Assembly (NCBI GenBank): GCA_050012255.1
Contig: JBEKHN010000017.1
Span: 1-46,853, forward strand
Length of the DNA: 46,853 nucleotides
Direction: 5' to 3'
From: Candidatus Bathyarchaeia archaeon
GTDB taxonomy: Archaea; Thermoproteota; Bathyarchaeia; Bathyarchaeales; Bathycorpusculaceae
Under the pieces are notes generated by a model. It did no database searches, was not told the origin of the DNA, and was given only the letters and a program-made list of their open reading frames with translations. Below, piece after piece: positions 2,566 through 32,015 of this stretch. Made by a program: the position numbers and the translations under genes. The first letter of the stretch is position 1. Every line of letters starts with the position of its first letter.

Positions 2566-4161
2566 TTGAACGAGGACAAGCCAATAGAAGAAATAATCAG
2601 AAATCTCATGCACATTTCCGCACCTAGCTCCAGCGATCTGAGCCGCGCAAAGGCAAAGGCGGCTTCCAAGTACCGACTCCAAAGGATACCCTCAAACTCG
2701 GAAATAATATGCATGCTCAAGCAGGAAGAAAAACGCAAACTTCTCCCACTGCTGCGAAGAAAGACAACACGGACGATATCAGGCGTCGCAGTCTTGGCCG
2801 CAATGACTAAGCCATACCCATGCCCACAAGATGAGCCCTGCGCCTACTGCCCAGGAGGACCAAAACAGGGAGTTCCCCAGAGCTACACAGGCTTTGAACC
2901 CGCAGCAATGCGAGGACTGCAAAACGACTTCAACCCCTACTTGCAAGTGAAGACGCGCATTCAACAGTTGAAAGCAATAGGACACAAAGTTGACAAGGTA
3001 GAACTGATAATCATGGGAGGAACTTTTCCTGCCACTCCAGCAGATTACCAAACCTGGTTCATCCAACGCTGTCTGGACGCAATCACTCAGAAAGATTCAG
3101 CCAATCTGGAAGAGGCGAAGAAGAACGCAGAAACGAGCGCAATGCGTAACGTGGGATTAACCGTTGAAACGCGTCCAGATTGGGCGAAAGAAGCGCACGT
3201 GGACCAAATGCTTAACATGGGTGTAACCCGTGTGGAAATGGGCGTTCAATACCCAAGCGACAGAATCTATCATCTCGTCGGTAGAAAACATTCACTCGCA
3301 GAAGTTGTTGAGGCAACACGAATAATGAAGGACGCTGGGCTGAAAGTCGTCTACCATCTGATGCCTGGGCTTCCCGGCACCAACCGCGAAGAAGACCTTG
3401 AAGCTTTCAGGACAATTTTCACCAACCCTAAATTCAAACCCGACATGGTCAAAATCTATCCATGCTTAGTTTTGAAAGACACAAAAGCGTATGAATGGTA
3501 CCGTCAAGGCACGTACACACCTTACACAAACGAGGAAGCAGCAGACCTCATCGCGGAAGTCAAGAGAATCATACCGCCGTGGGTACGCGTGATGCGAGTC
3601 CAGCGCGATATCCCTGCGCCTCTGATAGTTGCAGGCGTCAACAAGAGCAACCTCCGCCAAATAGTACAGAAGAAGGTTCAAGAAAAAGGCTTCAGATGCA
3701 GGTGTATACGCTGCAGAGAAGTCGGCCACAGGATCACAAGCGGTAACATAAAGGTTGACTCAGAAAAAATCCAGACTCTAACCACACGATACGAGGCCTC
3801 AGAGGGCCAAGAAATCTTCATATCCGCAGAAGACCCTGAAAACGACGTACTGATCGGCTATCTGAGACTCAGGGTTCCATCGGAAAAGGCGCATCGACCA
3901 GAAGTGAAAGCCACAATGTGCACAATAGTGCGGGAATTGCATGTTTACGGTTCACTTGTCCCAGTTGGCGAACACTTTGCAAAAGCCTGGCAGCACAAGG
4001 GCTACGGAGGCATTCTGCTCGCTCAAGCGGAGCGCATAACTCTGGAAGAGTACGGTTTCAAAAAGATTCTAGTTATAAGCGCCCTTGGTACAAAACAATA
4101 CTATAAGCGGTTCGGCTACGATTACGATGGAGTTTACATGTCAAAAACATTGGAGAATTAA
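2566..4161 (+). CDS. elp3: Elp3 tRNA uridine(34) acetyltransferase (radical SAM + KAT domains)
   Basis: PCPQDEPCAYCPGG cluster motif, QSYTGFEPAAMR, ETRPD, KIYP, RVQRDIP, VRELHVYG, WQHKGYG. Confidence 0.95.
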   Translation: MNEDKPIEEIIRNLMHISAPSSSDLSRAKAKAASKYRLQRIPSNSEIICMLKQEEKRKLLPLLRRKTTRTISGVAVLAAMTKPYPCPQDEPCAYCPGGPKQGVPQSYTGFEPAAMRGLQNDFNPYLQVKTRIQQLKAIGHKVDKVELIIMGGTFPATPADYQTWFIQRCLDAITQKDSANLEEAKKNAETSAMRNVGLTVETRPDWAKEAHVDQMLNMGVTRVEMGVQYPSDRIYHLVGRKHSLAEVVEATRIMKDAGLKVVYHLMPGLPGTNREEDLEAFRTIFTNPKFKPDMVKIYPCLVLKDTKAYEWYRQGTYTPYTNEEAADLIAEVKRIIPPWVRVMRVQRDIPAPLIVAGVNKSNLRQIVQKKVQEKGFRCRCIRCREVGHRITSGNIKVDSEKIQTLTTRYEASEGQEIFISAEDPENDVLIGYLRLRVPSEKAHRPEVKATMCTIVRELHVYGSLVPVGEHFAKAWQHKGYGGILLAQAERITLEEYGFKKILVISALGTKQYYKRFGYDYDGVYMSKTLEN

Positions 4162-4163
4162 AA

Positions 4164-5525
4164 ATGGCTGAAAAAGAAACGGGCTACCGAGGCAAAGCTC
4201 TTGAGGCAATCAAAAAGGCTCGGGCTAACATAGGCGATGTGATTCGTGTAACCAGAGAAAACGAGGTATACGAAGGAATTCTGATCCCCCGATCTGAGTA
4301 CGGTGACGAAAAGCATGTTGTCGTGAAGCTGAAAAATGGTTACAACATCGGCATAGCCATAACCGCGGACACGAAGGTTGAGAAAGTCGGAGAAGGCATG
4401 GAACCGACCTTTGCAGCGCCACCTCTTCCCGAACAGAAGCCAGAGCTTCCAAGAACCACCATAATAAGCACGGGTGGAACAATAGCCAGCCGCGTGGATT
4501 ACCGAACAGGCGGAGTCAGGCCAGCTTTGACCGCAAACGACCTCTACAGCGTTGTCCCCGAACTGGCAGACGTGGCACGCATAGAAACCCAGATACTTCT
4601 GAGCCTTTTCAGCGAAAACATTGGGTCCCAACAATGGACTCAAATCGCTCATGCCATCGCAAAGCAGATGTCAGAAGGAATCGAAGGCGTCATCGTAGCC
4701 CACGGAACAGACACCATGGGATACACTGCCGCAGCCCTTAGCTTCGCATTACAAAGCCTCCCAGCCCCAGTCATAATCGTTGGCTCGCAACGTTCAGCAG
4801 ATCGCCCGAGCTCAGATGCCGCCACAAATCTCCTCGGAGCTGTCTCGGCCGCGGCCAAAGCGCCGTTCGCTGAAGTAGTAGTCGCAATGCACGAGACGCC
4901 CTCAGACAACTACATAGCATTTCACAGGGGAACAAAAGTCCGAAAATGCCACACCAGCAGAAGAGACGCGTTCAAGTCAGTGAATGCAACACCGATTGCA
5001 AGGGTAGAAGAAAACGAGATAGTCATGCTAACACAAGACTATCAAAAACGAGACCCATCAAGAACACTCGTGCTAAGGCCAGACTTCCAAGAAAAGGTCG
5101 CGTTGATAAAATTCTACCCTGGAATGGACCCGGCAATCATACATTTCTATACAGAGAAAGAATACAAGGGCATTGTCATTGAAGGCACGGGTCTGGGTCA
5201 CATCAGCAAAGCCTGTTACGAGGGCTTGAGAAAAGCTGTCGGACAGGGCATTATCATTGCGATGACGTCTCAGTGTATCTGGGGACGCGTAAACATGAAC
5301 GTTTACGACGCAGGCCGCGATTTGCAAGCTCTAGGCGTGATCCCCTTAGAGGATATGCTTCCCGAGACGGCTCTTGTCAAACTCATGTGGGTTCTTGGAC
5401 AGACCGAGGACCGCGAAGAGGCAAAGAAACTATTGAAAACAAACATTGCGGCAGAGTTTTCGCTAAGAACCCTTGCGGAGAAGATGAGTTGCGAGCAACA
5501 CAAAGGTGGTTGCGATTGGAGCTAG
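4164..5525 (+). CDS. gatD: Glutamyl-tRNA(Gln) amidotransferase subunit D
   Basis: STGGTIASRVDYRTG, HGTDTM, SQRSADRPSSD, RKCHTSRRDAF; adjacent to gatE. Confidence 0.96.
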   Translation: MAEKETGYRGKALEAIKKARANIGDVIRVTRENEVYEGILIPRSEYGDEKHVVVKLKNGYNIGIAITADTKVEKVGEGMEPTFAAPPLPEQKPELPRTTIISTGGTIASRVDYRTGGVRPALTANDLYSVVPELADVARIETQILLSLFSENIGSQQWTQIAHAIAKQMSEGIEGVIVAHGTDTMGYTAAALSFALQSLPAPVIIVGSQRSADRPSSDAATNLLGAVSAAAKAPFAEVVVAMHETPSDNYIAFHRGTKVRKCHTSRRDAFKSVNATPIARVEENEIVMLTQDYQKRDPSRTLVLRPDFQEKVALIKFYPGMDPAIIHFYTEKEYKGIVIEGTGLGHISKACYEGLRKAVGQGIIIAMTSQCIWGRVNMNVYDAGRDLQALGVIPLEDMLPETALVKLMWVLGQTEDREEAKKLLKTNIAAEFSLRTLAEKMSCEQHKGGCDWS

Positions 5526-7420
5526 ACTACGAAAAAATCGGGTTAAAGGTCGGCCTAGAAATCCACCAGCAACTGAACACTTCGACGAAACTGTTCTGTA
5601 ACTGTAAGCCGGCACTCTTCAAAGAAGAACCAGAAATAACTTTTCTGCGCAGACTCAGACCGACCCAGAGCGAGCTGGGTCAAGTGGACGCTGCGGCTTT
5701 CTTCGAATTTCAAAAGGGAGTCAAAATCCTCTACGAGGCAAACAATGCGACGTCATGCCTTGTTGAGATGGATGAAGAACCTCCACACGCCTTGAACGAG
5801 GAAGCCGTCGAAACAGTCCTGACGGCGGCTCTAATGATGAATGCTAAGCCAGTTGGCGAAATACACGTGATGCGCAAGACAGTGATAGACGGCTCAAACA
5901 CTACAGGTTTTCAAAGAACATGCGTAGTGGCCCTGAACGGAGAAATCAAAGTGGGCGAAAAAACGGTTCCAATTCAACACGCAAGCCTGGAAGAGGACGC
6001 TGCGAGAAAAACAGGCGAAGAGAAAGGAAGCACAATAAAGTATCGCATTGACCGCCTGGGTATACCACTGATAGAAGTTGCCACCGCGCCAGTCATAAAG
6101 TCGCCTAATGAAGCCGCAGAAGTGGCACTCGCAATCGGAAGTATACTGAGAGCAACTGGAAAAGTCATGCGCGGTCTCGGCTCAATCCGCCAAGACATAA
6201 ACATATCGATCCCTCGAGGTGCTCTTATAGAAATCAAAGGTCTACAAGAACTCGAACTTGTTTCAATCGTTGTCGAGTACGAAGTCCGTCGTCAGCTTAA
6301 CCTCATTAGAATAAGTGAAGAACTGAGGAAGAGAGGAGTTGAAGACGACCAAGTAAGGGCCGAGTTCTTCAACGTAGAAGACATCTTCAAGAATACGAAG
6401 TGCAAAGTGATTCAAAAAGCCCTGGAGAAGAAGCAGCAGGTTCTGGCCGTTAGGTTGCCAAAGTTCAAGGACCTCCTGAAATGGGAATTAGGCCCTGGAT
6501 TGCGGCTTGGAACAGAGATGGCTGACAGAGCCAAGTTTTGGGGAAGAGTAGGGGGGATATTCCACACGGATGAGCTACCAGCCTACGGAATAACGACAGA
6601 AGAGGTTGAAAAACTGAGAAAGAACCTTGAAGCCCATGATGAGGACGCCGTGGTTCTTGTCGCAGACAATCAGGAAAACGCTGGAGACGCGTTAAGAGCC
6701 GTGGTGGAAAGAGCACGAGAAGCAATAGCAGGCGTACCTCAAGAAACGCGAGGACCAAACCCTGACGGGACAACACGCTACATGAGACCTCGCCCCGGTG
6801 CAGCAAGAATGTATCCGGAAACAGACATCCCACCCGTTCAAATCTCACAAAACTACGTGGACCAAATTCGTTCTCACCTACCAGAACTCCCAGAACAGAA
6901 ACTCGAACGGCTGCAGAAAGAGTACAGGCTCAATGACAAGCTGGCTAGACAGATCCTGAACTCCGAATACACTGAACTGTTTGAAAACATAGTAAGACAG
7001 AGCAAAGTCTCACCAACAACCATCGCAGCATTCATGACCGAGACTCTGAAGGCATTAAAACGAGACGGCATCACAGTGGAAAAAGTGTCAGACACACAGC
7101 TGAGCGGCATCTTCAGACTCGTAGGGGAAGGAAAACTTGCGAAAGAAGCAATCTCGCAGGTGTTCACTTGGCTGTCAAAGAATGAGGACAAGACTATTGA
7201 AGAAGCTATCAGAGAGCTTGGCTTGCAAACCATCCCTCAGGCTGAACTAGAGAAGTTGGTGACCAAGATCGTTGAGGAAAACAAAGAATTGATCAAGAAG
7301 CATGGAGAAAGCAGCTTCAGCCTCCTAATGGGCATAGCCATGAACAACCTGCGGGGCAAGGCGAACGCAGCACTTGTAAGTAAAGTGCTGAAACAAAGGC
7401 TTAAAGAAGCCCTAGAATAG
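5516..7420 (+). CDS. gatE: Glutamyl-tRNA(Gln) amidotransferase subunit E
   Basis: GLKVGLEIHQQL, DGSNTTGFQRT, RMYPETDIP. Start set at TTG 5516 (AGGTGG RBS-like upstream, overlapping the gatD stop) rather than 5273. Confidence 0.95.
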   Translation: MELDYEKIGLKVGLEIHQQLNTSTKLFCNCKPALFKEEPEITFLRRLRPTQSELGQVDAAAFFEFQKGVKILYEANNATSCLVEMDEEPPHALNEEAVETVLTAALMMNAKPVGEIHVMRKTVIDGSNTTGFQRTCVVALNGEIKVGEKTVPIQHASLEEDAARKTGEEKGSTIKYRIDRLGIPLIEVATAPVIKSPNEAAEVALAIGSILRATGKVMRGLGSIRQDINISIPRGALIEIKGLQELELVSIVVEYEVRRQLNLIRISEELRKRGVEDDQVRAEFFNVEDIFKNTKCKVIQKALEKKQQVLAVRLPKFKDLLKWELGPGLRLGTEMADRAKFWGRVGGIFHTDELPAYGITTEEVEKLRKNLEAHDEDAVVLVADNQENAGDALRAVVERAREAIAGVPQETRGPNPDGTTRYMRPRPGAARMYPETDIPPVQISQNYVDQIRSHLPELPEQKLERLQKEYRLNDKLARQILNSEYTELFENIVRQSKVSPTTIAAFMTETLKALKRDGITVEKVSDTQLSGIFRLVGEGKLAKEAISQVFTWLSKNEDKTIEEAIRELGLQTIPQAELEKLVTKIVEENKELIKKHGESSFSLLMGIAMNNLRGKANAALVSKVLKQRLKEALE

Positions 7421-7424
7421 AAAC

Positions 7425-8060
7425 CTACTTCTGCTTCTGATCAGTCACAGCTATGACAGGAGTCCTCAGCAGTCTGGCATCCTCGCCACAGTATGGGCAT
7501 ATCTTGAATTCAGGCAACAAAGGCTTTCCGCATGCCAAGCACACATAAGAGTACTTCACATTATCCTCGAGCTTCTCCACTTCTTTCGCCAAGTCATTCA
7601 ACTCTAGCCTGATCAGATCAACGGTCGTCGCCAAAGGCTGAATTTCCTTCACTTCTGTCCTCACGTTGCAGATCATATCCTTAACATTTGCGATAGTCTC
7701 ACTGCTAGACTCTAACGTCTCGTACATCGCATCGAGAATTTCGCTCTTATCTTCAACCACCTTGGTCTCGGCAGCACTCTGCTTCTTGGCATCTGAAACC
7801 GCCTTCTTCAAGAGCTTTTCCATAGGGTTCTCAAAGGCTACTGCGCACGTGATCCCCCAAAAAACCAAGCTCGCCAAAGCAGACAGCCATAAATATAGAA
7901 CGGGCGAAACGCTGTTCAGATTCCCGCCAACAAAGGGATAGAGCTTAAGAAGCTTGATCTCGCCTCCAGAAACCAAAACGTAAATCGCCTCAATCAGGTG
8001 CGCAACCGACACGAACGTCAGGGAGCTGAAGATCCAGACGGAAAGCCCTTTCTTTGCCAA
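7425..8060 (-). CDS. Membrane-anchored coiled-coil protein with C-terminal zinc ribbon
   Basis: Two hydrophobic segments, a heptad-rich middle, CLAC...CPYC at the C-terminus; GGTGA RBS before the TTG start. Confidence 0.75.
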   Translation of the reverse strand: MAKKGLSVWIFSSLTFVSVAHLIEAIYVLVSGGEIKLLKLYPFVGGNLNSVSPVLYLWLSALASLVFWGITCAVAFENPMEKLLKKAVSDAKKQSAAETKVVEDKSEILDAMYETLESSSETIANVKDMICNVRTEVKEIQPLATTVDLIRLELNDLAKEVEKLEDNVKYSYVCLACGKPLLPEFKICPYCGEDARLLRTPVIAVTDQKQK

Positions 8061-8100
8061 GGATTTTCACCATTGTTGAGAAGGCGATACAAGGTCAACT

Positions 8101-8125
8101 ATTGTATCTTAATATTTAATACAAT
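8101..8125. promoter_or_regulatory. Inverted repeat ATTGTAT-N11-ATACAAT enclosing AT-rich TATA-like sequence in a divergent promoter
   Basis: attgtat cttaatattta atacaat read directly, between divergent genes starting at 8060(-) and 8219(+). Confidence 0.45.
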
Positions 8126-8218
8126 GCTTCCCACCTGCAACATATATCGAAAATCGTAACATGTCCAAATGCGCAAATCCTAAAAGGAGTTGTCACTTTC
8201 CTATATCAGGGGATAGGT

Positions 8219-8719
8219 TTGCAGCAGAAGAAACCTAGAAAAACCGGTGGAAGTTTTGCCTTTCGAGTGAAGATAGGGGACTATGAGGTCGAGGTCACCG
8301 GGGCCTACGAACAAGTTCTTGATACGATCAAAGTCTTGCCGAGCCTGATAAGCGACATCGACAAGGCATTTGAAAAAGTGAAACCTAAGAAGGTGGCAAC
8401 ACTAACCGTCAAGACCGGGGCTCCCGACGCCGAAAGACCTTCATCCCAACAATACCCGCGCATATCGCACACGGCAAAACCCGATGAGGCACTCTTGAAA
8501 GTTCTCGAAACTGATTGGGGAAAATGGCGCCCACGCACGATCGACGAGCTCAGCGAAGCATTAAAGGCAAATGAACTGGAACACTCAGTGCGCACCCTCG
8601 CAGCAGTCCTTATGGAGCTAGTCAAGAAAGAAAAGATCAAACGTTGGAGCACCAACACCGGCTACGTGTACATTCTCGCTGAAAAAGAAGCTCTACGTTC
8701 ACGAGGAGACGCTGAATGA
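8219..8719 (+). CDS. Hypothetical protein A: N-terminal beta-hairpin-helix, C-terminal winged-helix-like domain
   Basis: FRVKIGDYEVEVTG...; RTIDELSEALKAN...TLAAVLMELVKKEKIKRW..GYVYIL matches a wHTH pattern. 4-nt overlap with the next gene. Confidence 0.75.
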   Translation: MQQKKPRKTGGSFAFRVKIGDYEVEVTGAYEQVLDTIKVLPSLISDIDKAFEKVKPKKVATLTVKTGAPDAERPSSQQYPRISHTAKPDEALLKVLETDWGKWRPRTIDELSEALKANELEHSVRTLAAVLMELVKKEKIKRWSTNTGYVYILAEKEALRSRGDAE

Positions 8720-9186
8720 ACAGGGTTGAAGCACGAATCAAAACGCCCTTCGGTGAAATCATAGTCGAGGGCGAAAACCCCCAAGAAGTCCTCAAGATAC
8801 TCGAGAACTTTCCAGACAATTTCATGCAAAAAGTGTCTGAACTCGTCTCAAGCCGTTTGATTCCATCAGGGGCTCAGCTGAAAGGCATTGTTGAATCTAC
8901 AACAGAGGGGCCTGTAATAGTAGCCCACGAAAACCTAACACACTATGAAGCGATAGGCTTGACACTGTATGCTTCAGAAGAGAAGAAGAACACTGCGGCG
9001 AAGATAACGAAGCTTCTAGAGTCAAGCGGAATGAAATGCATGGTCCCAGCTCGACTCAACGAAATGACGAAGAGAGGGCAAGTGTTCAAACCAGATCCCA
9101 ACAGACCTGAATTTAAGCTTACGATCCAAGGCGAGAGATGGGTTGAAAACGAAGTCCTAGCCAAGCTCAGAGGTAAGATCGGTTGA
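8716..9186 (+). CDS. Hypothetical protein B: beta-hairpin-helix + winged-helix-like domain
   Basis: VEARIKTPFGEIIVEGENPQEV...; PARLNEMTKRGQVFK..EFKLTIQGERWV (MarR-like wing). ATGA overlap with the upstream gene. Confidence 0.75.
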   Translation: MNRVEARIKTPFGEIIVEGENPQEVLKILENFPDNFMQKVSELVSSRLIPSGAQLKGIVESTTEGPVIVAHENLTHYEAIGLTLYASEEKKNTAAKITKLLESSGMKCMVPARLNEMTKRGQVFKPDPNRPEFKLTIQGERWVENEVLAKLRGKIG

Positions 9187-9701
9187 GTGAAGAACCAAAC
9201 AGCTTGATGGTTCACATCAGGTACAAGGACGTTGAAAAGACATTCTCGGGCAACCCAGAAGAAGTTTGGTTGCTACTGAACAAATTCTTTGCTGAGCTAC
9301 TTCCTTCATTCGAAACTGCGAGAAAACTGACATTGAGCGTTGACCTGAAAACCCTAGCTAAGGACAGCGAGAAGGTCTTGGCCTTTGCAGAAGAGGGCCC
9401 CTACATACTCGTGCCAAGAAACAAGTTGACGGACAACGAGACTCTCGCATTGCTGCTTTTAGCTAATCATATGGGACGCCGATTGGGCAAGGTCCAGGGC
9501 GATGGTCTTTCCAAGGAAGAACTCCAAGCAAAACTCGGAAAAGACGCAAAAATAACGAGCACACGCTTGGGCGAACTCGTAAAAAACGAGATGGTGACGA
9601 AAACCGCTGACGACACTTACAAGATCACAACCTTTGGCCTAGTTCAGCTTCAAAAAGACATTCTACCAAGAATCAAGGCAAGAACTGGCATTCTAGCCTA
9701 G
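9183..9701 (+). CDS. Hypothetical protein C: beta-hairpin-helix + winged-helix-like domain
   Basis: VHIRYKDVEKTFSGNPEEV...; LSKEELQAKLG..ITSTRLGELVKNEMVTK..YKITTFG. TTGA overlap with the upstream gene. Confidence 0.75.
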   Translation: MSEEPNSLMVHIRYKDVEKTFSGNPEEVWLLLNKFFAELLPSFETARKLTLSVDLKTLAKDSEKVLAFAEEGPYILVPRNKLTDNETLALLLLANHMGRRLGKVQGDGLSKEELQAKLGKDAKITSTRLGELVKNEMVTKTADDTYKITTFGLVQLQKDILPRIKARTGILA

Positions 9702-9720
9702 CTATATAAGTGCAGATCGT

Positions 9721-10122
9721 TTAGGAAGCCGGTCTTTTTTGAGCGTATTGGTACCTGCGTGGTTTTCCTTCTCTCGTCAAGACGCCGTCCTTGACCAAGT
9801 CGATCAAGGCATGGGCGACCGCCGTCCGGTCATAGTGGAAGCCCCGTCTTGCCAACTCGCTGTGCACCTCGCTTAGGCCCTTGGCAACTGCGAACCAGCC
9901 TTCCTCCCACAGCTTCTGAATTATGCCCTTGCAGGTTTCAGCCCTTGGCCGCTGGGCAGACCTCTCCATCATTAGAGGAGTCTCTCTCAACCTCTCAGTC
10001 ACAGTTGAGAGAATCTTGTCTACAGTCGGTTGCAGCTGATCTTCTTGGCACTCAATCTCGAACTCTATTTCACCTATCTTCATCTTCAACCGTATCGGCT
10101 GTTTTGCTTCTCTCTCTGTCAA
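9721..10122 (-). CDS. Hypothetical protein D: beta-hairpin-helix + winged-helix-like domain
   Basis: IRLKMKIGEIEFEIEC...; GLSEVHSELARRG..AVAHALIDLVKDGVLTREGKPRRYQY. Start moved to TTG 10122, which follows an AAGGTGA RBS. Confidence 0.75.
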   Translation of the reverse strand: MTEREAKQPIRLKMKIGEIEFEIECQEDQLQPTVDKILSTVTERLRETPLMMERSAQRPRAETCKGIIQKLWEEGWFAVAKGLSEVHSELARRGFHYDRTAVAHALIDLVKDGVLTREGKPRRYQYAQKRPAS

Positions 10123-10141
10123 GGGCTCACCTTGTTGTTTA

Positions 10142-10169
10142 TTGTGTTGTACATCTTGTACATGCACAA
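10142..10169. promoter_or_regulatory. Tandem TTGTACAT repeats inside an imperfect palindrome (TTGTG..TGTACA-TCT-TGTACA..CACAA)
   Basis: ttgtgttgtacatcttgtacatgcacaa read directly in the divergent intergenic region between gene D and nurA, just before a TTAAAT box. Confidence 0.45.
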
Positions 10170-10215
10170 CACTTAAATATGTCCTCCTCAAACAATTGGC
10201 TATTGGTGAATCTTT

Positions 10216-11289
10216 GTGATTGCACAATACCCTATTGCAACAACACCAAAATATAACTTTCCACAACCTGCAATGGACACCACGCTCCCACACCAGTTCA
10301 CCAGACTTAGTTTGTATTCGTTAAGTCACCGACACAATCACTACTTTCAACAAAAGGAGCAATTAATTCAACAAGTCAGCACAGAGGAAACCTTCCAAAC
10401 ACTAAGGCTTAAACTTGAACCCATGCTCCTCAAACCCCGACATGAGCAAACCGTTGTTGCAGCAGTAGACACGTCAACCATGAAGATCGCCGAAACAAGC
10501 GCAGGAATAGTGATTGCCGTCAGAGGCGCAAATGTCTGGAAACAAAGAGCAAACTACAGATACACTCGAATAGGCCCATTCATCTTCCAGGTAACGGAAG
10601 AAAACAAAAGAGAAGTCTACAACACCTTGGAAAGAGCATATTTAACTTCTGCACGCGAACCAGGGCACCAAAGCGCGCCGAGTCTCTTGCAGATGCCGAC
10701 ACGAATAGCAAACCTCCTCGAAAGATGGTTACAAGCGATGCTCACAAAAACCTTGAACAACGGATTGATCCTTTTCGACGGCTCCTTAACCGCTGGAACA
10801 GCAGACACGCCGACACGTCGCATGAAAGAAATTCTGAAAGATGGAAGGGAAAGAGGCAATGCTATCTTGGCTTTTTCAAAGATGACAAACCTGAGAGTCA
10901 ACGGTTCCCTCATAACAGATCTCGCGTTCGAACAAAGACCTCCATACTTGGTTGAGACCATCGGTTTGAGACTCAAGCCTCCAATGGTTCCGTTGGGAGA
11001 AGTCTACGTTGCCAAGTTAAGCAGTGGAAACTGTGCCTTCAGGCTCGACATCGACGCAGAAGTTCCTCACGAGCTGAGAGTCGAAGCGGTCGAGAGACTG
11101 CTAGGCAACGACCTGATCTCGCAGAGCTACCCCGAAACCCTCCGATTAGCTCACATCCTTTGCACATTCACAGCCAACGAAGTGCTAGCAATGCAGCACT
11201 TCATCACCCGCAAATGCGGGCTTCAGATCATCAACAGACCAGACATGCACAAACTCTTGTTCGGACCCTTCGGCAAAGGAGAGAGCTAA
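10216..11289 (+). CDS. nurA: NurA-family nuclease
   Basis: AAVDTS, LILFDGSL, AFSK and SYPETLRLAH motifs; directly upstream of a HerA-like gene. Start uncertain. Confidence 0.8.
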   Translation: MIAQYPIATTPKYNFPQPAMDTTLPHQFTRLSLYSLSHRHNHYFQQKEQLIQQVSTEETFQTLRLKLEPMLLKPRHEQTVVAAVDTSTMKIAETSAGIVIAVRGANVWKQRANYRYTRIGPFIFQVTEENKREVYNTLERAYLTSAREPGHQSAPSLLQMPTRIANLLERWLQAMLTKTLNNGLILFDGSLTAGTADTPTRRMKEILKDGRERGNAILAFSKMTNLRVNGSLITDLAFEQRPPYLVETIGLRLKPPMVPLGEVYVAKLSSGNCAFRLDIDAEVPHELRVEAVERLLGNDLISQSYPETLRLAHILCTFTANEVLAMQHFITRKCGLQIINRPDMHKLLFGPFGKGES

Positions 11290-11291
11290 TC

Positions 11292-12743
11292 ATGAAGCTC
11301 TACAAAAAAGAGGGAAATGCGATCTACGTTCTGAGTTTCCCGAACGAAACCGTCGAAAAAGGGGATTACTTGCTCGTCCAAGACGATGAAGCAAGAAGAG
11401 CCCTGATCGCGCAGGTAATCGACGTGCAGTTTGCTGCCGTTCCAGGCGTCCTAGAAGAGCTTCTCCGCAGTCTGCCAGACGGTGGAGAACTGCTTCAAGG
11501 CGAGGACATTGATCCTCTTGAAATTGCTCCACACATCACCTACATCCAAGACGCCAGCCTTCTTATCTGCAAGATCAGGGCAACCGTCGAGAACGACAGC
11601 TTGAACCCGAGTAGCTCCTGGCTTCCCTCACGCTCACAATCGACGATTAAAAAACTACCAATCTCGACACTGCTCAAGCTCGCCAAGATAAACGGAAAAC
11701 TCCCAATAGTCCTAGGCACCATGAAAGACTCCTCACTTCTAACGATAGACGCTACATCACTTGATGGAAGGCTGAACATCATAACAGGAAAAAAGGAAAC
11801 AGGCAAATCCCACCTGTCCAAGCTGTTGATGATAAACCTGTTGGACTACAAGGCCACAGTCGTCGTCTTCGACTTGAACGGTGAGTACCTCAGCCTAGGG
11901 ATAACATCTGACGGAAAAAGAAACCTCAACCATGACAAGATACATGTTTTAACGCCTTCACAGAACTTCAAGGTAGCCCTGAAACAGATGAGCCTCCACG
12001 TCTTACTCGGCATACTTGTTCACGCACTTCATCTCCCAGGCACATCTGCTCGTGAATTTAGACGCATATGGAAAGAGCTGAAACAGAGAGACAGCCTGAC
12101 GTTGCACGAGTTGGGAGAAACGATACGAAACTGGAACTGCAACCAGCACGTGCGCGACGCACTGTTCTCACGATACCACACGCTAGTAAACTCGGGCTTC
12201 TTCACAGACAACATTGCTGAGGCCGCTTTACTAGAAGAATCCTTCCTGAAAGCAAGCGAAGAAGGCGGTGCCATAATCATAAACCTGCGAAACACATCAA
12301 CGATTGACCGGCAGATAGTCGTCGAGCACATTCTTGGAAGACTCGTTGAGTCCCTGACGAACTGGAAGCTCAAGGCGGTGTTCCTCTTCGCAGAAGAAGC
12401 CCACCTCTACTTACGTGAGACTTATTGGGACGACATCGTCACCCGCATGCGCCATTTCGGCATCTTCACAACATTCATAACCAATCAACCTGACACGATA
12501 AAAGAAAACATCTATCGCCAAGCCGACAACATATTCCTCTTCAACTTCACGAACGAGCATGATTTGGACGTCGTTTCAAGAGCCTCGAGAGTAGATGCAG
12601 AAACCGTAAGATCCATAGCCAGAGACCTGCCACCGCACAATTGCCTCGTCCTCGGAAAAGCAGTGAGAGACTTTCCGATCGTTGCCAAAATCAAAGCCAT
12701 GGACGTCAAAACCATGGGTGAAACAAGACTTTTCTTCGGATGA
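11292..12743 (+). CDS. herA: HerA-family helicase/ATPase (DUF87)
   Basis: N-terminal HAS-barrel-like region, Walker A ITGKKETGKS, VFDLNGEY, Walker B FLFAEEAH, RMRHFG. ATG 11292 lies 2 nt after the nurA stop. Confidence 0.85.
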   Translation: MKLYKKEGNAIYVLSFPNETVEKGDYLLVQDDEARRALIAQVIDVQFAAVPGVLEELLRSLPDGGELLQGEDIDPLEIAPHITYIQDASLLICKIRATVENDSLNPSSSWLPSRSQSTIKKLPISTLLKLAKINGKLPIVLGTMKDSSLLTIDATSLDGRLNIITGKKETGKSHLSKLLMINLLDYKATVVVFDLNGEYLSLGITSDGKRNLNHDKIHVLTPSQNFKVALKQMSLHVLLGILVHALHLPGTSAREFRRIWKELKQRDSLTLHELGETIRNWNCNQHVRDALFSRYHTLVNSGFFTDNIAEAALLEESFLKASEEGGAIIINLRNTSTIDRQIVVEHILGRLVESLTNWKLKAVFLFAEEAHLYLRETYWDDIVTRMRHFGIFTTFITNQPDTIKENIYRQADNIFLFNFTNEHDLDVVSRASRVDAETVRSIARDLPPHNCLVLGKAVRDFPIVAKIKAMDVKTMGETRLFFG

Positions 12744-12775
12744 TTGACTAACGATCGCACATTGCATAAGCATGG

Positions 12776-13228
12776 TTATTCTTCGGGAGAAGAAATCATT
12801 TTCTCTAGTCTCTTCCTGTTCTTCTCGAAAAAGCCTCTGAAACTTTTTGTCAGATCCTTCTGTTCAACTTCGTCAAGCAGGACCCACTCAAGTTCTGCAG
12901 CGTCACTTGCGGCTCTAGCCGTTCCGCCCTTAAGCTTGACAAGGTAGTCGACTATTACGAAGTGATACTTCACCTTACCACTTTCATCCAAAGAAGCTTG
13001 GCCGACAACATCGATAAGTTCAGGCGCATCAACCACGAGGCCAGTCTCTTCTTGGACCTCTCTTATCACGCTCTGTTCGAGACTTTCACCCAGTTCAACT
13101 TTGCCCCCAGGAATGCTCCACTTACCCCTTCCGGGGTCATTTTTCCTCTTCTCAAGCAGAATCTTACCACTCTGTATGATAATTGCGCCGACGCCCACAA
13201 TCGGCCGGTTCGAGTAAAGTCTACTCAA
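12776..13228 (-). CDS. Nudix hydrolase (ADP-ribose pyrophosphatase-like)
   Basis: Nudix box GGKVELGESLEQSVIREVQEETGL; GGAGG RBS upstream. Confidence 0.9.
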   Translation of the reverse strand: MSRLYSNRPIVGVGAIIIQSGKILLEKRKNDPGRGKWSIPGGKVELGESLEQSVIREVQEETGLVVDAPELIDVVGQASLDESGKVKYHFVIVDYLVKLKGGTARAASDAAELEWVLLDEVEQKDLTKSFRGFFEKNRKRLEKMISSPEE

Positions 13229-13399
13229 GCCTTCTGAAACCTCCTGCGCACAGCTCTTTCACTGGTTTTCAGGGATTCTACGGCCTTAAGTTTTTGCGTC
13301 GCCATTTCGGATAGCCCCGAATGCGCATTGATATCTCTGCTTGCGCATACACATAAACAGTGACGGCTATGCCTGTTGGAAAGAGAACAGGAATTTCGC

Positions 13400-18907: not shown

Positions 18908-19147
18908 ATGGAACCCAGCAAGAAACCCCTAAACGTCCTCATCAAGCAGCTGAACGCAGGAATCGCAGTCGTGCTGAAGAACGGCGGCGAATACAAGGGC
19001 AAGATGATCAAGTGCGACGGTCACATGAACATTCTGTTGGAAGGGGCCACCGAGTCCAAGGACGACCAGCTGATTACGAACTATGGAAGCGTCCTGCTGC
19101 GCGGCAACAATGTTCTCTACATAATGCTTGACGTTCCTACAAGATGA
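18908..19147 (+). CDS. Sm-like (LSm/SmAP) RNA-binding protein
   Basis: Sm1 motif VVLKNGGEYKGKMIKCDGHMNILL, Sm2 motif LLRGNNVLYI; ATG at 18908. Confidence 0.92.
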   Translation: MEPSKKPLNVLIKQLNAGIAVVLKNGGEYKGKMIKCDGHMNILLEGATESKDDQLITNYGSVLLRGNNVLYIMLDVPTR

Positions 19148-20042
19148 TAGTCCTGCTCTCTCCAGTAACATAATTCAGGCATTCTTGAATTTTCACGATT
19201 AGCCGATGCTTGCGTTCAAAATACTGCAGAACGTTCTGGATGTCGCGTTTGAGCAACTCTTCGGCGTTCGGGTGATCCCTCTTAACGTACTGTGGCCAAT
19301 CAATTATCAAGATGTGCTTATCGGGTTTCAGGATGATGTTGTACTCGCTCAGGTCAGCATGAATGACGTCTGCCTTCAAGAAGGCTTTCCGAACATTGCG
19401 CAGAATTTCTCGAAGAATTCTATCGGGCCTAGCCAACCTTTTCCAATTTGCGAGTTCTGCACCCTCAATCATCCCCATGACTACGACGTGACGGCTTTGA
19501 TTCAACGGCTCTGGCACAGCTACTCCGCAGGGAAAGAGAAGCCTAAGAGCTTGAAATTCCCTTTCCGCTGCGAGTCGTGACTCATAAAGCCATCCTGCAC
19601 TGCGCTCGGTCGTGTAGCTTCTTTTGCGGGTTGTCTGTCGAAAACTGATCCTTCCCAGTCTGTGGAACTTGACGGCGATTCGCTTGCCTTTAGGGTCCAA
19701 AGCGTCATAGACATCGGCTTCTTTGCCCACGCCCAACGACTTGCCGAACGCCTCAAGCACTCCGGCTTTAACCAAGGCGTTTATCGCTAAACAATCGTAT
19801 CCTGCGTAATTCAAAGTGTAGCCGACGTAGGCGCCGCGCTTCTGATAGATTAGGCCAAGCTTGTGGACTCGAGTTAGCCTGAAATCTGTGTCTCGGGCCA
19901 AGTCATACCCGGTGAACTTTGCGATCTGCTCTTTCGGCGCGAACTCGTGTTGACTCATCGCAGTCTCTATGGCCTGTAGCACCCGAAGGTCTTCGCTTTC
20001 CAGTTCACGAAACACTTTTACCGCAACGTCGGCCGATGACAT
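19137..20042 (-). CDS. rio2: RIO2-family serine kinase
   Basis: N-terminal wHTH (GYDCLAI), GVGKEADVY, KFHRLGRISF, IHADLSEYNI, IDWPQ. Confidence 0.92.
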   Translation of the reverse strand: MSSADVAVKVFRELESEDLRVLQAIETAMSQHEFAPKEQIAKFTGYDLARDTDFRLTRVHKLGLIYQKRGAYVGYTLNYAGYDCLAINALVKAGVLEAFGKSLGVGKEADVYDALDPKGKRIAVKFHRLGRISFRQTTRKRSYTTERSAGWLYESRLAAEREFQALRLLFPCGVAVPEPLNQSRHVVVMGMIEGAELANWKRLARPDRILREILRNVRKAFLKADVIHADLSEYNIILKPDKHILIIDWPQYVKRDHPNAEELLKRDIQNVLQYFERKHRLIVKIQECLNYVTGESRTIIL

Positions 20043-22938: not shown

Positions 22939-25302
22939 TCAGAAGGATTTGTGTTCAGTCCTCTTGATTATTTCGTTCTGCAGTTCTACACTGAGATTAA
23001 CAAAGTAATCACTATATCCTGCAACTCTTACCAAGAGATCTCCGTATTTTTCGGGATTTTTCTGTGCATCACGCAACGTCTCAGCATCCACCACGTTGAA
23101 TTGAATATGATGCCCGTCAAGTTTGAAATACGTGCGAATGAGATGCGCTAGCTTGTCTAGTCCTTCTTCATCGGCCAAGAGTTCGGGGGCAAATTTTTGG
23201 TTAAGCAGGGTTCCGCCTGTCCTGGCATGGTCTATTTTGGAGACGGATTTTATCACCGCTGTGGGGCCTTTTTTATCCGCTCCTTGGACCGGCGACACTC
23301 CCTCAGACAGGGGTTCCAACGCTTTTCTCCCGTCAGCCGTAGCCCCTGTGACCCTTCCGAAATAGACGTGTACCGTCGTCGGCAACAAGTTTATTCTGTA
23401 ATTGCCGCCTTTCGTGCTGGGTCTTCCTTCTATTGCCTCGTAGTAGGCTTCAAAAACGGCTTTCATCACATTGTCTGCATAATCGTCATCGTTTCCATAT
23501 TTTGGCGTTTTGTTCAGGAGTATCTGACGGAGAGTTTCGTACCCGTTGAAGTCCGCTTTCAGGGCTTTGAGCAACTCTCTCATGGTGATCTGTTTCTTGT
23601 CAAAAACCTGATAGCTGATTGCTGTCAACGAGTCAGTTATAGTGCCGAGTCCCACGCCTTGAATGTAGTTTGTATTGTATCGAGCTCCTCCATCGTTGTA
23701 GTCTTTGCCTTTCGCTATGCAATCGTCTATGAGGAGGGACAAGAAAGGCACAGGTAGGCGTTCGGCGTACAATCTTTCTATTATGTTGTTTCCCTTAATT
23801 TTGAGATTGACAAAGTAGTTGAGTTGCCTCTTGAACGCATCGAAAACTTCCTCAAAAGAGCCGAACTTGGTAGGGTCGCCTGTTTCCAGTCCAATCTTCA
23901 GACCTGTTCTCGGGTCCAGACCGTTGTTCAAAGCGGTCTCGAGCACTTTGACCAAGTTGAAATACCCCGTGAGAATGTAGCACTCTTTGCCAAACGCTCC
24001 TGTCTCCACGCACCCGCTTGCGCCTCCGTTTCTCGCATCTTCGATTCTTTTTCCCTGCCTCAGAAGCTCTTGAATTATGACATCAGTGTTGAACACTGAT
24101 GGTTGTCCAAAGCCTGTTCTTATGATTCTCAATGCTCTTTTCAAGAAACTGTCAGGAGTCTTTTTGCTAATCTGGACCATCGAACTAGGCTGAGGGATCC
24201 TCATTTCGTCTATGACATCAAGTATCATGTAGGAAAGTTCGTTCACTCCGTCAGAACCGTCAGCCTTGACTCCGCCCGTGTTTATCAGTGCGAAATCATT
24301 GTACGTGTTGCTTTCTTCTGCCGTGACTCCTACCTTCGGCGGAGCTGGCTGGTTGTTGAACTTTATCCAAAGCAGCTGCAGGAGTTCTTTTGCATTTTCC
24401 TTCGTCAAAGTTCGGTCGTCAAGATCCTTCTTGTAGAAGGAGTAGAGATGTTGGTCGAGCCTGCCAGGGTTGAACGCATCCCAAGGGTTGACTTCTGTTA
24501 TTACTCCCAGATGAATGAACCAGTAGTGCTGCAAGGCTTCCCAGAAGTCTCGCGGCGCGTGAGCTGGCACACGAGTGCACACATCAGCTATCTTCTTCAG
24601 TTCCTTTCTTCTCACATGGTTCTTTTCCTTCTTCCGTAGTTCTCTCGCCTTTTCAGCGTATCTCGCTCCGTAGCAAATGAGAGCGTCTGCCACAATGTCC
24701 ATCGCTCTGAGTTCTTCCATCTTTTCGTGTGCTCTCGGATCATTCAAGAAATCGAGGCTTTGCATGCTCCTTGCGATGTCTTTCTTGAAATCGACCAATC
24801 CTTTTCCGTAAATCTTGTTGTCTAGAGCAGTATGCCCCGGAGCTCTCTGCTCCAAAAATTCAGTGAACACCCCTGCTTGATAAGCGGTCTTCCATTCTTG
24901 AGACATCTCACTGAATATTTTCTCTCTTATTGACCTACCTTTCCAGAAGGGAATGATCTTTTCCTTGTATGTTCTCTTTGTTTCCCCATTGACTGCGTAT
25001 GACATCTTCTTTCTAGTGCTCAGGATTTCGAGGTCTTCAAGGCTATGGCAACATATTTCGGGGTATGTTGGAACTGCCTTAGGAGCCGGCCCTCTCTCAC
25101 CGACAATCAGCTCCCGTTCACCGACATAGATTTTCTTGTTTTCAAGCACATGCTTGAACGCAAGTGCCCTTCGCACCGGCTCGGACACATGGCTAGCAAC
25201 ATCTCCCTCATAAAACCTTGTTATCAGAACCGCTCTTTCAGCTGTGATATACGGCTTCGTCTTAATGCTCTGTTCCCTCAGTTTCCTAACCCTTTCATTC
25301 AT
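22939..25302 (-). CDS. hypD: Glycyl radical enzyme, trans-4-hydroxy-L-proline dehydratase (HypD) type
   Basis: Gly-radical motif RVAGY, Cys loop SGCVETG, and HypD-type signatures EQRAPGHT, PAPPKVGVTAEESNTYNDFA, YILTGY, LLPTTVHVYFG. Confidence 0.85.
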   Translation of the reverse strand: MNERVRKLREQSIKTKPYITAERAVLITRFYEGDVASHVSEPVRRALAFKHVLENKKIYVGERELIVGERGPAPKAVPTYPEICCHSLEDLEILSTRKKMSYAVNGETKRTYKEKIIPFWKGRSIREKIFSEMSQEWKTAYQAGVFTEFLEQRAPGHTALDNKIYGKGLVDFKKDIARSMQSLDFLNDPRAHEKMEELRAMDIVADALICYGARYAEKARELRKKEKNHVRRKELKKIADVCTRVPAHAPRDFWEALQHYWFIHLGVITEVNPWDAFNPGRLDQHLYSFYKKDLDDRTLTKENAKELLQLLWIKFNNQPAPPKVGVTAEESNTYNDFALINTGGVKADGSDGVNELSYMILDVIDEMRIPQPSSMVQISKKTPDSFLKRALRIIRTGFGQPSVFNTDVIIQELLRQGKRIEDARNGGASGCVETGAFGKECYILTGYFNLVKVLETALNNGLDPRTGLKIGLETGDPTKFGSFEEVFDAFKRQLNYFVNLKIKGNNIIERLYAERLPVPFLSLLIDDCIAKGKDYNDGGARYNTNYIQGVGLGTITDSLTAISYQVFDKKQITMRELLKALKADFNGYETLRQILLNKTPKYGNDDDYADNVMKAVFEAYYEAIEGRPSTKGGNYRINLLPTTVHVYFGRVTGATADGRKALEPLSEGVSPVQGADKKGPTAVIKSVSKIDHARTGGTLLNQKFAPELLADEEGLDKLAHLIRTYFKLDGHHIQFNVVDAETLRDAQKNPEKYGDLLVRVAGYSDYFVNLSVELQNEIIKRTEHKSF

Positions 25303-25303
25303 G

Positions 25304-26221
25304 CTATCCTCCCCCTATTCTCACTTTCAACCCAAAAGCCTCAAGTTCTTCTTCGATTAGATTCAGGTCTTGGTCCGATGGAGTTTTGATCTTTTTCACC
25401 TTGTAGACCCTGCTTAGGCCCTTGTACTTCTCGATTCCCGCTCGGTGGTAAGGAAGAAGACTTATGTTCTTTATTCTGCACGAAGCCACAAATTCAGCTG
25501 TCTCGGTGACATTGTCCTTGTCATCATTGATTCCTGGAATGATGGGAAAACGAACCTGAATGTTGCTTCCATTTTCTGCTAATCTCTTGAGATTTTCGAG
25601 AATTGGCTTGTTTGACACGCCAGTATATTTTATATGCTTTTTCTCATCCATAGTCTTGATGTCATACAGGAAAAGGTCTACCTTATCGCTGATTTTGGCG
25701 ATGGCGTCATGCGAGGCATAGCCACAAGTATTGACTGCGGTGCGAATGTTCCAGTCTTTACACTCCTTAAGGAGAGCGCTTAGAAAATCGAGCTGCAAGA
25801 GGGGTTCTCCTCCAGAAAAAGTCACACCGCCTTCTGACTCATCGTAGAAAATCGAGTCCTTGTCAATCTCTCTCAAGACCTCTTTTAAGGTCACTTGCTT
25901 TCCAGTAATCGCAAGGGCCCCTGTTGGACATACCTGGCAGCACTTTCCGCACAAATTGCAGCGATTCCTGTTAATGGATATTCTCCTGAAAGGACATAAA
26001 ATTGCCTCTTCCGGACAGATCTTCACACACTCGGCACAGCTGTCACACCTAGTTCTTCTGTACATCAATTCCGGTGTCGACAGCTGACCCTCAGGGTTGT
26101 GGCACCACCAGCAACGCAGAAGACAACCCTTGAAGAATATGGTTGTGCGTATCCCAGGTCCGTCATCAATGGCGAATTTTTTGATATCAAAAATAACGCC
26201 TCTTTTGATGGCCATGCCCAC
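25304..26221 (-). CDS. Glycyl-radical enzyme activating enzyme (radical SAM with 2x[4Fe-4S] ferredoxin insert)
   Basis: DGPGIRTTIFFKGCLLRCWWCHNPE, two CxxCxxCxxxC motifs, GGVTFSGGEP, LLPYH. Confidence 0.92.
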   Translation of the reverse strand: MGMAIKRGVIFDIKKFAIDDGPGIRTTIFFKGCLLRCWWCHNPEGQLSTPELMYRRTRCDSCAECVKICPEEAILCPFRRISINRNRCNLCGKCCQVCPTGALAITGKQVTLKEVLREIDKDSIFYDESEGGVTFSGGEPLLQLDFLSALLKECKDWNIRTAVNTCGYASHDAIAKISDKVDLFLYDIKTMDEKKHIKYTGVSNKPILENLKRLAENGSNIQVRFPIIPGINDDKDNVTETAEFVASCRIKNISLLPYHRAGIEKYKGLSRVYKVKKIKTPSDQDLNLIEEELEAFGLKVRIGGG

Positions 26222-31302: not shown

Positions 31303-31911
31303 GTGCAAAAATTGATTTCGTGGAAGCATTCTTTTAAGAGATTAAGCGAAGAATACGAAGTGGCGAGGAAAAAGAAACAAGCTTTGGACAATTTGCTGAG
31401 AAAGGGCAGAATTTCGCAGTCCACTTTCGACGTGTTCAATCGAGAGATAGAAGATGCGCTCGCAGAAGTCGAGAAGGAAGAAAAGGCATTGTTGGAAAAG
31501 ATGGCTGCTAAAGTAGTTGAACTCGAAGGGCAGGTGAAAACTCTGGAGGTTCTTCTAGCAAACTTTGAGATTGGACACGTGACAGGCGAGATAGATGACC
31601 AGGTCTATCAGCGGGAGAACGACCTTCTTTCTGTGGGACTTGAAACAACGAAACAAGAACTAGACGAAGTCAAGGAAGCGGCAGACGAGCTTGCGGGTGG
31701 CGAATTGACAATGGACATAGAGCCTGAGGAGCTTTCGCTTGAAAGCGAAGCTACTCAGCAAGAAGTCAGATTCTTGGAGGAGTCGCCCCCCACAGAGGAA
31801 AAAGACCCTGCTGAGCATAACAAGGAAACCGTGGTTCAAACAGTAGTGTGTACAACACAGGCCGGGTCGCCAGAAGTCAAGGCTAAGGCTGAAGAAAAAC
31901 CAGAAGCTTAA
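31303..31911 (+). CDS. CdvA-like coiled-coil protein with acidic C-terminal tail
   Basis: KKKQALDNLLRKGRISQSTF and LANFEIGHVTGEIDDQVY resemble the CdvA coiled-coil repeats; recognised from memory of the family. Confidence 0.7.
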   Translation: MQKLISWKHSFKRLSEEYEVARKKKQALDNLLRKGRISQSTFDVFNREIEDALAEVEKEEKALLEKMAAKVVELEGQVKTLEVLLANFEIGHVTGEIDDQVYQRENDLLSVGLETTKQELDEVKEAADELAGGELTMDIEPEELSLESEATQQEVRFLEESPPTEEKDPAEHNKETVVQTVVCTTQAGSPEVKAKAEEKPEA

Positions 31912-32015
31912 CAAGGCCACTATTCTCCTCTCTTTTTCTTTTCAAACGCGCCCAGACGAGCCATGCAGGATTTTATACTGGTTTGCATTCATTCTGGGCT
32001 GAGGATGTTCTGCAA

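Follow-up and report, generated by a model that had tools for sequence, protein, structure and literature searches.

The HerA ATPase and the NurA nuclease are treated as the minimal archaeal machine for DNA end resection, which works together with Mre11-Rad50. Winged-helix proteins that read DNA and are coupled to an ATPase are found in the FtsK gamma/KOPS system and in plasmid systems composed of a centromere-binding protein and an ATPase, and FtsK and HerA belong to the same superfamily. Here we analysed a 46,853-nt stretch of DNA (referred to as the window; contig JBEKHN010000017.1, positions 1 to 46,853) from a Candidatus Bathyarchaeia archaeon, whose genome assembly comprises 2.35 Mb and is 98.5% complete. 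In the window four small genes, A to D, encode winged-helix paralogues and are located next to the genes for a NurA-like nuclease and a HerA-like ATPase, referred to as NurA2 and HerA2. As in the canonical archaeal pair these two genes are adjacent and their products match the Pfam NurA and HerA families, with Walker motifs and the conserved Asp. Unlike the canonical pair, NurA2-HerA2 represents a separate clade that is linked to the winged-helix paralogues and not to Mre11-Rad50.

HerA-NurA as such is known; what is new is a HerA-NurA system with a dedicated winged-helix partner family and a conserved cis site. Our data suggest, with a probability of roughly 0.5, that A to D constitute a dedicated DNA-binding regulatory or targeting module of this second system. 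In the literature we found no account of winged-helix genes linked to HerA-NurA, as judged from search listings, and in the available part of a 2026 review on NurA (PMC13748450) the words "winged-helix" and "paralog" do not occur. A second, separately evolving pair with its own three or four winged-helix partner genes and a highly conserved non-coding stretch is relevant to the control or targeting of a potentially dangerous nuclease-motor in uncultured TACK archaea. According to labels on identical proteins, the distribution covers Bathyarchaeia, Caldarchaeum/Calditenuaceae, Brockarchaeota and hot-spring Nitrososphaerota. Moreover, the system is testable, as it consists of defined proteins, a DNA fragment of ~150 bp and two enzymes, and it adds to the winged-helix repertoire an N-terminal module that has no Pfam match and that we do not claim to be a new fold.

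Four winged-helix paralogues

Genes A (8219-8719, 166 amino acids (aa)), B (8716-9186, 156 aa) and C (9183-9701, 172 aa) are encoded on the plus strand with TTG, ATG and TTG as start codons, respectively, and form an operon with A as its first gene. The overlaps between A and B (ATGA, 8716-8719) and between B and C (TTGA, 9183-9186) are both 4 nt. D (9721-10122, minus strand, 133 aa, TTG start) is convergent with C and divergent from nurA2-herA2. The longest open reading frame (ORF) of D starts at 10293, and the orthologue alignment (A4) sets the start at TTG 10122, where the orthologues have Met; a GGTGA is present just 5' of this position. The initial annotation of the window had described these four ORFs and both overlaps together with a set of peptide motifs, all of which were found in the ORF list and the translations. 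It had further regarded the products as divergent paralogues in two subtypes, A/D and B/C, with a hairpin-helix N-domain and a C-terminal winged helix, no ligand-sensing or catalytic domain and no place in a named family, and as given below these features are borne out.

Pairwise BLAST comparisons of the four proteins gave weak matches (B-C, E 1.6e-6; B-D, 0.008; A-C, 0.019). When the alignments of orthologues (14 for A, alignment A1) were compared using hhalign, A was joined to D over the full length (probability 96.4, E 1e-9) and B to C (probability 97.9, E 4.6e-13); with these small alignments A/D was not joined to B/C (A vs C, E 0.0054 and probability 6.7; B vs D, nothing). Deeper alignments of 79 A/D and 93 B/C sequences joined the two subtypes (probability 96.3, E 2e-9) over 123 colinear columns, from the N-terminal hairpin to the recognition helix. 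The all-vs-all profile comparison therefore confirms the paralogy as well as the two subtypes, and A, B, C and D appear from their profiles to represent one uncharacterised superfamily of small two-domain proteins. Across families the orthologues of B are 47-96% and those of D 46-97% identical. The winged helix of D is highly conserved (HYDRTAVAHAL.DLV...GKPRRY) with a near-invariant recognition helix.

In each of A to D a linker is predicted to connect an N-terminal beta-hairpin-plus-helix module to a single C-terminal winged helix of the MarR/PadR type, and this layout is seen in the models of B and D. In the AlphaFold2 model of B (predicted local distance difference test score, pLDDT, 88.6) the strands 4-10 and 13-19 are followed by helices (22-55), a small hairpin (59-68), the winged helix (76-135) and a helix (137-155); the N-domain is made up of a hairpin and three helices. 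The corresponding model of D (pLDDT 71.7) has strands at 10-16 and 19-25 and a helix at 27-47, modelled with low confidence, followed by a disordered linker (47-59) and a winged helix (64-128) with pLDDT 84-93. In B, C and D a basic winged helix, with an isoelectric point (pI) of 9.4-9.9, is combined with an acidic N-domain; in A the charges are reversed, such that the N-domain is basic (pI 9.5) and the winged helix near-neutral (pI 5.9). As whole proteins A to D are small and overall basic (pI 7.8-9.3).

Comparison with solved structures using VIA-align resulted in matches between B 69-156 and QsrR, STIV F93, MarR, PadR, RosR and AspA (Z 9-10.9, root mean square deviation 2.1-3.4 Å, 72-84 aligned residues), and between D 60-131 and compact winged helices (Z 8-10.7). 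For D the top match was 2mh2 (Z 10.7), which we take to be the winged helix of Hop2, a recombination factor rather than a regulator, and further matches were Fur, Z-alpha, H1/H5, MecI, Rpa2 and cullin WHB. Both segments thus have the winged-helix fold that the MarR, PadR and TrmB families share. The likeness to MarR/PadR-type regulators, including RosR, BldR, STIV F93, SSV1 F-93, pNOB8 AspA and Sso10a, comprises the C-terminal 85-90 residues of B, including the helix after the wing, as well as the basic winged-helix domains. Unlike these regulators, A to D match no curated model, carry an N-terminal hairpin-helix that no Pfam family matches, and three or four paralogues are found together, linked to a nuclease-ATPase pair. 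The segment of D also aligns with BlaI/MecI, Fur and other compact winged helices (Z 8.8-10.7), and Penicillinase_R (PF03965) matches A and D weakly (14.4 and 17.1 bits, both under the 22.6-bit cut-off). In contrast to BlaI/MecI and Fur, A to D lack the sensor, metal or dimerisation domain of those families, and the top match is 2mh2. By analogy, A to D probably act like MarR/PadR regulators or AspA-type centromere-binding proteins without belonging to the curated families.

None of the Pfam MarR, PadR or TrmB regulator models matched A to D at E≤1; a distant relative of B/C, P0299, has weak MarR and HTH_24 matches near the cut-offs. No Pfam or NCBIfam model reached its cut-off for the whole proteins, and the N-domains alone matched no Pfam family even at E≤10. 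Sequence searches of solved structures with the B and D profiles gave nothing below E 0.1, and Foldseek comparison of the B model with the PDB gave nothing at E≤0.001, the rows being MarR-type only, from 0.0075 and weaker. In the protein atlas B and D fall in unnamed clusters, and copies in public databases carry the label "hypothetical protein" or "predicted transcriptional regulator". The PADLOC defence models matched none of A, B, D and NurA2, with one weak match for C (E 0.0028), and for HerA2 only generic HerA and mad8 matches were obtained. With respect to ESCRT-II (Vps22/25/36) no Pfam family matched at E≤1, and B and D have one winged helix each in the models, not a tandem pair. For kite proteins (ScpB, MukE, JetB/DUF4194) we obtained 12.4 bits for C with DUF4194 (cut-off 32.7), and the winged helix is again single in the B and D models. 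Finally, prediction of a B+C complex from matched 83-row alignments (A7, A8) gave a score of 0.01 and a mark of 0.32; run without controls, it counts neither for nor against such a complex.

Linkage to a second NurA-HerA pair

NurA2 (10273-11289) and HerA2 (11292-12743), a NurA-like nuclease and an ATPase of the HerA/FtsK superfamily, are both encoded on the plus strand and separated by a 2-nt gap. The longest ORF of nurA2 starts at 10216, and ATG 10273 was chosen as the start based on conservation among orthologues. NurA2 belongs to Pfam NurA (PF09376; 24.8 bits, cut-off 21) and HerA2 to the Pfam HerA central domain family (PF01935, DUF87; 54.1 bits, cut-off 23.2). Neither the Asp of AVDTS nor the DGSL motif varies among the 37 NurA2 orthologues. 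In the 42 HerA2 orthologues the Walker A sequence GKKETGKSH is invariant save the fourth residue (E in 37, G in 5) and FAEEAH is invariant throughout; in these alignments the catalytic motifs of both enzymes are intact.

NurA2-HerA2 constitutes a second copy, as the canonical operon is present on another contig (C14; L144:3719-9671), where it encodes NurA (373 aa), HerA (513 aa), an Mre11-like protein (422 aa) and a Rad50-like protein (674 aa). HerA2 is 26% identical to this canonical HerA over 193 aa (E 0.023) and 33-52% identical, over the full length, to HerAs located beside winged-helix genes in other lineages. Hidden Markov models (HMMs) built from the 42 HerA2 and 37 NurA2 orthologues gave 321-646 and 45-287 bits, respectively, with the other-lineage neighbours of winged-helix genes, and no match at E≤1e-3 with the canonical proteins of the same genome. 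Moreover, HerA2 scored 27.4 and 23.3 bits with the NCBIfam HerA equivalogs NF040937 and NF040819, where 800-970 bits are needed.

To describe the gene neighbourhood, 100 Bathyarchaeia-type loci were fetched and their ORFs were labelled by HMMs and clustering; gene calls are longest ORFs, and some starts are approximate. Both B and C are present in 97 of the 100 loci (adjacent and co-directional in 87) and A precedes B in 70. Among relatives, C was matched in 35 of the 41 genomes searched, including that of the window. D is present in 43 loci, 39 of which extend 1.2 kb or more past D; in every one of these 39 the next gene, in divergent orientation, is NurA-like and precedes a HerA-like gene. 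The adjacency holds despite variation in the genes between C and D (HAD hydrolase, low-molecular-weight phosphatase, SFM1-like methyltransferase). Where B-C loci lack A and D, the genome has a single A/D-profile gene elsewhere, which is of the D type and again divergent from NurA-HerA (5/5 genomes checked).

Outside the Bathyarchaeia-type set, 36 loci were fetched around profile matches, and in 28 of these the winged-helix paralogues are located directly beside NurA and HerA, as identified by Pfam or HMM. Clustering in many other genomes, which the initial annotation required for its idea to hold, is thus observed both in Bathyarchaeia and in other lineages; nor are the folds unrelated, and by the curated models the proteins are not well-characterised stand-alone regulators. 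The 28 loci show the orders B>C>NurA>HerA>, B>C>(C>)A>NurA>HerA>, B>C>D<NurA>HerA>, corresponding to the layout of the window minus A, and HerA<NurA<D>B>C>C>. In one locus start and stop codons overlap at both the B/C and the NurA/HerA junctions. The remaining eight include L121 and L122 with B-C-C beside unrelated genes, five with weak winged-helix profile matches of 34-70 bits (L130, L137, L154, L155 and L160), and L152, which was not assessed. Labels on identical proteins include Candidatus Caldarchaeum subterraneum, Calditenuaceae, Brockarchaeota, Nitrososphaerota and Thermoproteota metagenome-assembled genomes, the proteins themselves all being called hypothetical, and loci whose B proteins match Brockarchaeota- or Thermoproteota-labelled records have B and C only. 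In L131 (845-3352) the HerA beside the winged-helix genes holds an intein (Pfam Intein_splicing, 5.9e-20).

When 301 evenly sampled genomes of the phylum were searched, the B-only profile matched 75, the A/D profile 124, including weak matches in one large family, and HerA2 (E≤1e-40) 100. Among the 43 genomes of the same class, 28 have both A/D and HerA2, four A/D only, two HerA2 only and nine neither, counts that come from related genomes, which are not independent samples, and that are not a statistical test. In family f1 both are present in the same 10 of 16 genomes and absent from the same six. Within one genus C, D, A and HerA2 have been lost together while B persists.

The region between D and nurA2

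D and nurA2 are separated by an ultraconserved, putative bidirectional control region (10123-10272; alignment A9, 14 loci). TATA-like boxes are present at about 10172-10180 for D and at about 10250-10256 for nurA2, the latter ~20 nt before ATG 10273. Directly downstream of the TATA-like box of D is the palindrome TTGTGCAT-N7-ATGYACAA (10147-10169, minus strand), a candidate operator, and between the two TATA-like boxes is the direct repeat AATCACMAAGATTCACCAAT (10202-10221, minus strand), a candidate binding site. Archaeal repressors commonly act at a palindrome just downstream of a TATA-like box.

For the 170 nt upstream of D the mean column identity over 38 loci is 0.86, with 100 columns at ≥90% and 58 invariant; the stretch of equal length upstream of A gives 0.55, eight and two, respectively, in these 38 loci. 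Nucleotide conservation of the 150-bp region extends over loci from several families of the order, though the D proteins of these loci are only 46-97% identical. Specifically, TTCACCAA is invariant in all 14 aligned loci and all 44 distinct upstream regions contain the 7-mer TCACCAA. The palindrome occurs once in the 2.35-Mb genome, and the 20-mer of the direct repeat also occurs once, even when up to three mismatches are allowed. The half-sites of the palindrome co-vary in three of the 14 sequences, and in other lineages D promoters have TATAAAT followed by GTTGCKCAA-type palindromes (GTTGNNCAA half-sites).

An RNA gene in the intergenic region was considered and is not supported: Rfam gave no match over 7300-13300, and the consensus fold of the conserved region is weak (RNAalifold, -10.7 kcal/mol, covariation term 0.02). 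The D leader may contain a hairpin.

Possible roles of A to D, and neighbouring genes

The near-invariant recognition helix of D, its constant divergent position and the genome-unique site make D a likely autoregulator and regulator of nurA2-herA2. As part of a dedicated module of the NurA2-HerA2 system, D would most likely bind the palindrome and direct-repeat sites as a sequence-specific autoregulator and repressor of nurA2-herA2, with its paralogues possibly joining. The products of the translationally coupled A-B-C genes probably form homo- or hetero-oligomers, which would co-regulate the machine or help to target NurA2-HerA2. DNA binding by A to D, the pairing of protein and site, repression and oligomerisation through the N-domains are predicted features of such a module. 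The A-B-C operon is in the same functional neighbourhood as NurA2-HerA2, as seen in at least four gene orders and in the co-loss of C; its role may be that of a co-regulator or of a targeting subunit.

Several observations weigh against a dedicated module of this kind. B is found next to GatD-GatE across lineages, these genes being directly upstream of a B-type gene in several of them (5273-7420 in the window; L013, L014, L147, L148, L159, L134 and L135, with GatD-GatE in L147, L148 and L159 identified by size only, ~446 and 638 aa). This deep GatD-GatE-B synteny has no obvious functional reason, and inherited gene order may thus account for part of the linkage. Among the nine same-class genomes without A/D and HerA2, eight still carry B. 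Moreover, in five genomes of one genus (L163-L167; 90-97% complete) B is present without C, A/D and HerA2; their single B/C-family gene is B, GatE is adjacent in two of them (L164 and L165) and no C follows. Since B persists without HerA2, it must have a role that is independent of HerA2-NurA2. In loci L118-L124, L131 and L133 the winged-helix genes accompany a NurA/HerA subtype that escapes the HMMs of HerA2 and NurA2, and the co-occurrence derives from genomes that are related. Motif I of NurA2 is D-T, unlike the D-G given for NurA in the 2026 review (PMC13748450). For plain regulators it is unusual to have three or four paralogues encoded in the same operon as the enzymes, which favours a role as subunits of the machine, and the protein-DNA and protein-protein contacts of A to D are predicted ones.

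As subunits of the machine, A to D would associate by way of their N-domains to form a DNA-recognition adaptor, which docks on a NurA2 dimer and a HerA2 hexamer and replaces Mre11-Rad50 as the substrate finder of a specialised machine for processing DNA ends or structures, with binding to their own promoter being secondary. We regard this as possible but tentative. It is in keeping with the co-directional, tightly packed B-C-NurA-HerA and B-C-(C)-A-NurA-HerA operons of other lineages, the joint loss of C, D, A and HerA2 within one genus, the very high conservation of B and D and the intein in one HerA. The winged helix of A, which is not basic, is as would be expected for a protein-binding winged helix, and B/C units are fused to enzyme domains, i.e. 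a protein kinase with two B/C units (P0232) and DUF488 (P0350), as well as to an N-terminal part of ~200 aa that precedes the B/C unit in P0267 and P0283 (no Pfam match; a PD..E.K-like motif by eye only). The docking contact is only predicted, however, B survives without HerA2, and in no Bathyarchaeia locus is D transcribed together with the enzymes; it has instead the classic position of a divergent regulator over unique operator-like repeats. A to D could also be ordinary, independent winged-helix transcription factors with unrelated targets, whose closeness to NurA2-HerA2 and GatDE reflects inherited gene order. The regulator fold of the MarR/PadR type, the label "predicted transcriptional regulator" that some sources give B, the presence of B without the rest and the retained GatD-GatE-B synteny all fit this explanation. 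We nevertheless find it unlikely: D stays adjacent to NurA in 39 of 39 loci whichever genes lie between C and D, also where D has moved from B-C, the linkage is retained across lineages in at least four gene orders, and A/D and HerA2 are found together (28 of the 43 genomes have both, nine neither).

A more specialised proposal is that A to D act as a sequence-specific loader, which would bring the HerA2 translocase and the NurA2 nuclease to one site in the chromosome, namely the ultraconserved 150 bp beside the genes of the loader. The likeness to FtsK gamma/KOPS and centromere systems, drawn here for comparison only, consists of a winged-helix reader, an ATPase and a unique cis site beside the genes; unlike in FtsK gamma/KOPS the winged helices are separate proteins and a nuclease is part of the set, and translocation, segregation and site-specific loading would be predicted activities here. 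If true, the locus would be an archaeal equivalent of FtsK/KOPS-dif or centromere-type systems guided by winged helices, and would serve to resolve or segregate chromosomes or to process DNA in a programmed manner in Bathyarchaeia and the other carrier lineages, but we consider this quite improbable. The initial annotation had instead suggested an obligate A-B-C-D heteromer, either a bridging nucleoid protein or an ESCRT-II/kite-like scaffold. The proteins are indeed small, overall basic, abundant in genomes and translationally coupled; Lsr2-type bridging proteins have a similar layout with an N-terminal hairpin-helix, a linker and a DNA-binding domain, and the many winged-helix matches of D include linker histone globular domains and a Wadjet JetABC chain (Z 8.3-8.4). 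An obligate four-part complex is not supported by the distribution, since the five A-less B-C genomes that were checked hold only D, five genomes have B alone and some loci only B and C. Likewise, A to D each have one winged helix, as opposed to the tandem pair in ESCRT-II/kite proteins, no Pfam ESCRT-II or kite match was obtained, and the conserved neighbour genes include no SMC or kleisin partner and no adjacent ESCRT-III/Vps4 gene. The family is missing from most of the phylum (B profile in 75 and A/D profile in 124 of the 301 genomes), and the sole conserved DNA motifs found near the genes are unique in the genome. The ties to the NurA-like/HerA-like pair together with this genome-unique site speak against a general chromatin role, which we regard as the least probable of these explanations.

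A defence island was also considered and rejected in view of the housekeeping neighbours (GatDE, Nudix and amino-acid kinase), the synteny kept across families and the intein in one HerA.

Divergent from A, a protein with membrane, coiled-coil and zinc-ribbon features is encoded at 7425-8060 (minus strand; the zinc-ribbon Pfam matches are weak and below cut-off). Its cluster is represented in 53 of the 100 Bathyarchaeia loci and is divergent from the A-B-C side wherever it is listed in the gene order; this frequent neighbour may belong to the system. In other lineages a protein of ~230 aa is encoded divergently from B (L120:5191-5904, L123:7143-7853, L124:6675-7370, L131:4993-5676, L121:5222-5914 and L122:5237-6079). 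No Pfam family matches it; inspection by eye suggests an N-terminal stretch resembling a winged helix-turn-helix and a C-terminal strand and helix, and it might represent a permuted fifth partner.

Elsewhere in the window, genes for an ELP3-like radical-SAM protein (2566-4161, plus strand) and a RIO2-type kinase (19137-20042, minus strand) are recurrent neighbours in related loci. A pyruvate-formate-lyase-like glycyl radical enzyme (787 aa) and a radical-SAM activase are encoded at 22939-26221 (minus strand). Finally, a CdvA-like coiled-coil protein (31303-31911, plus strand; Pfam CdvA 1.1e-13) is followed by a gene of the histone-deacetylase family (31983-33113).

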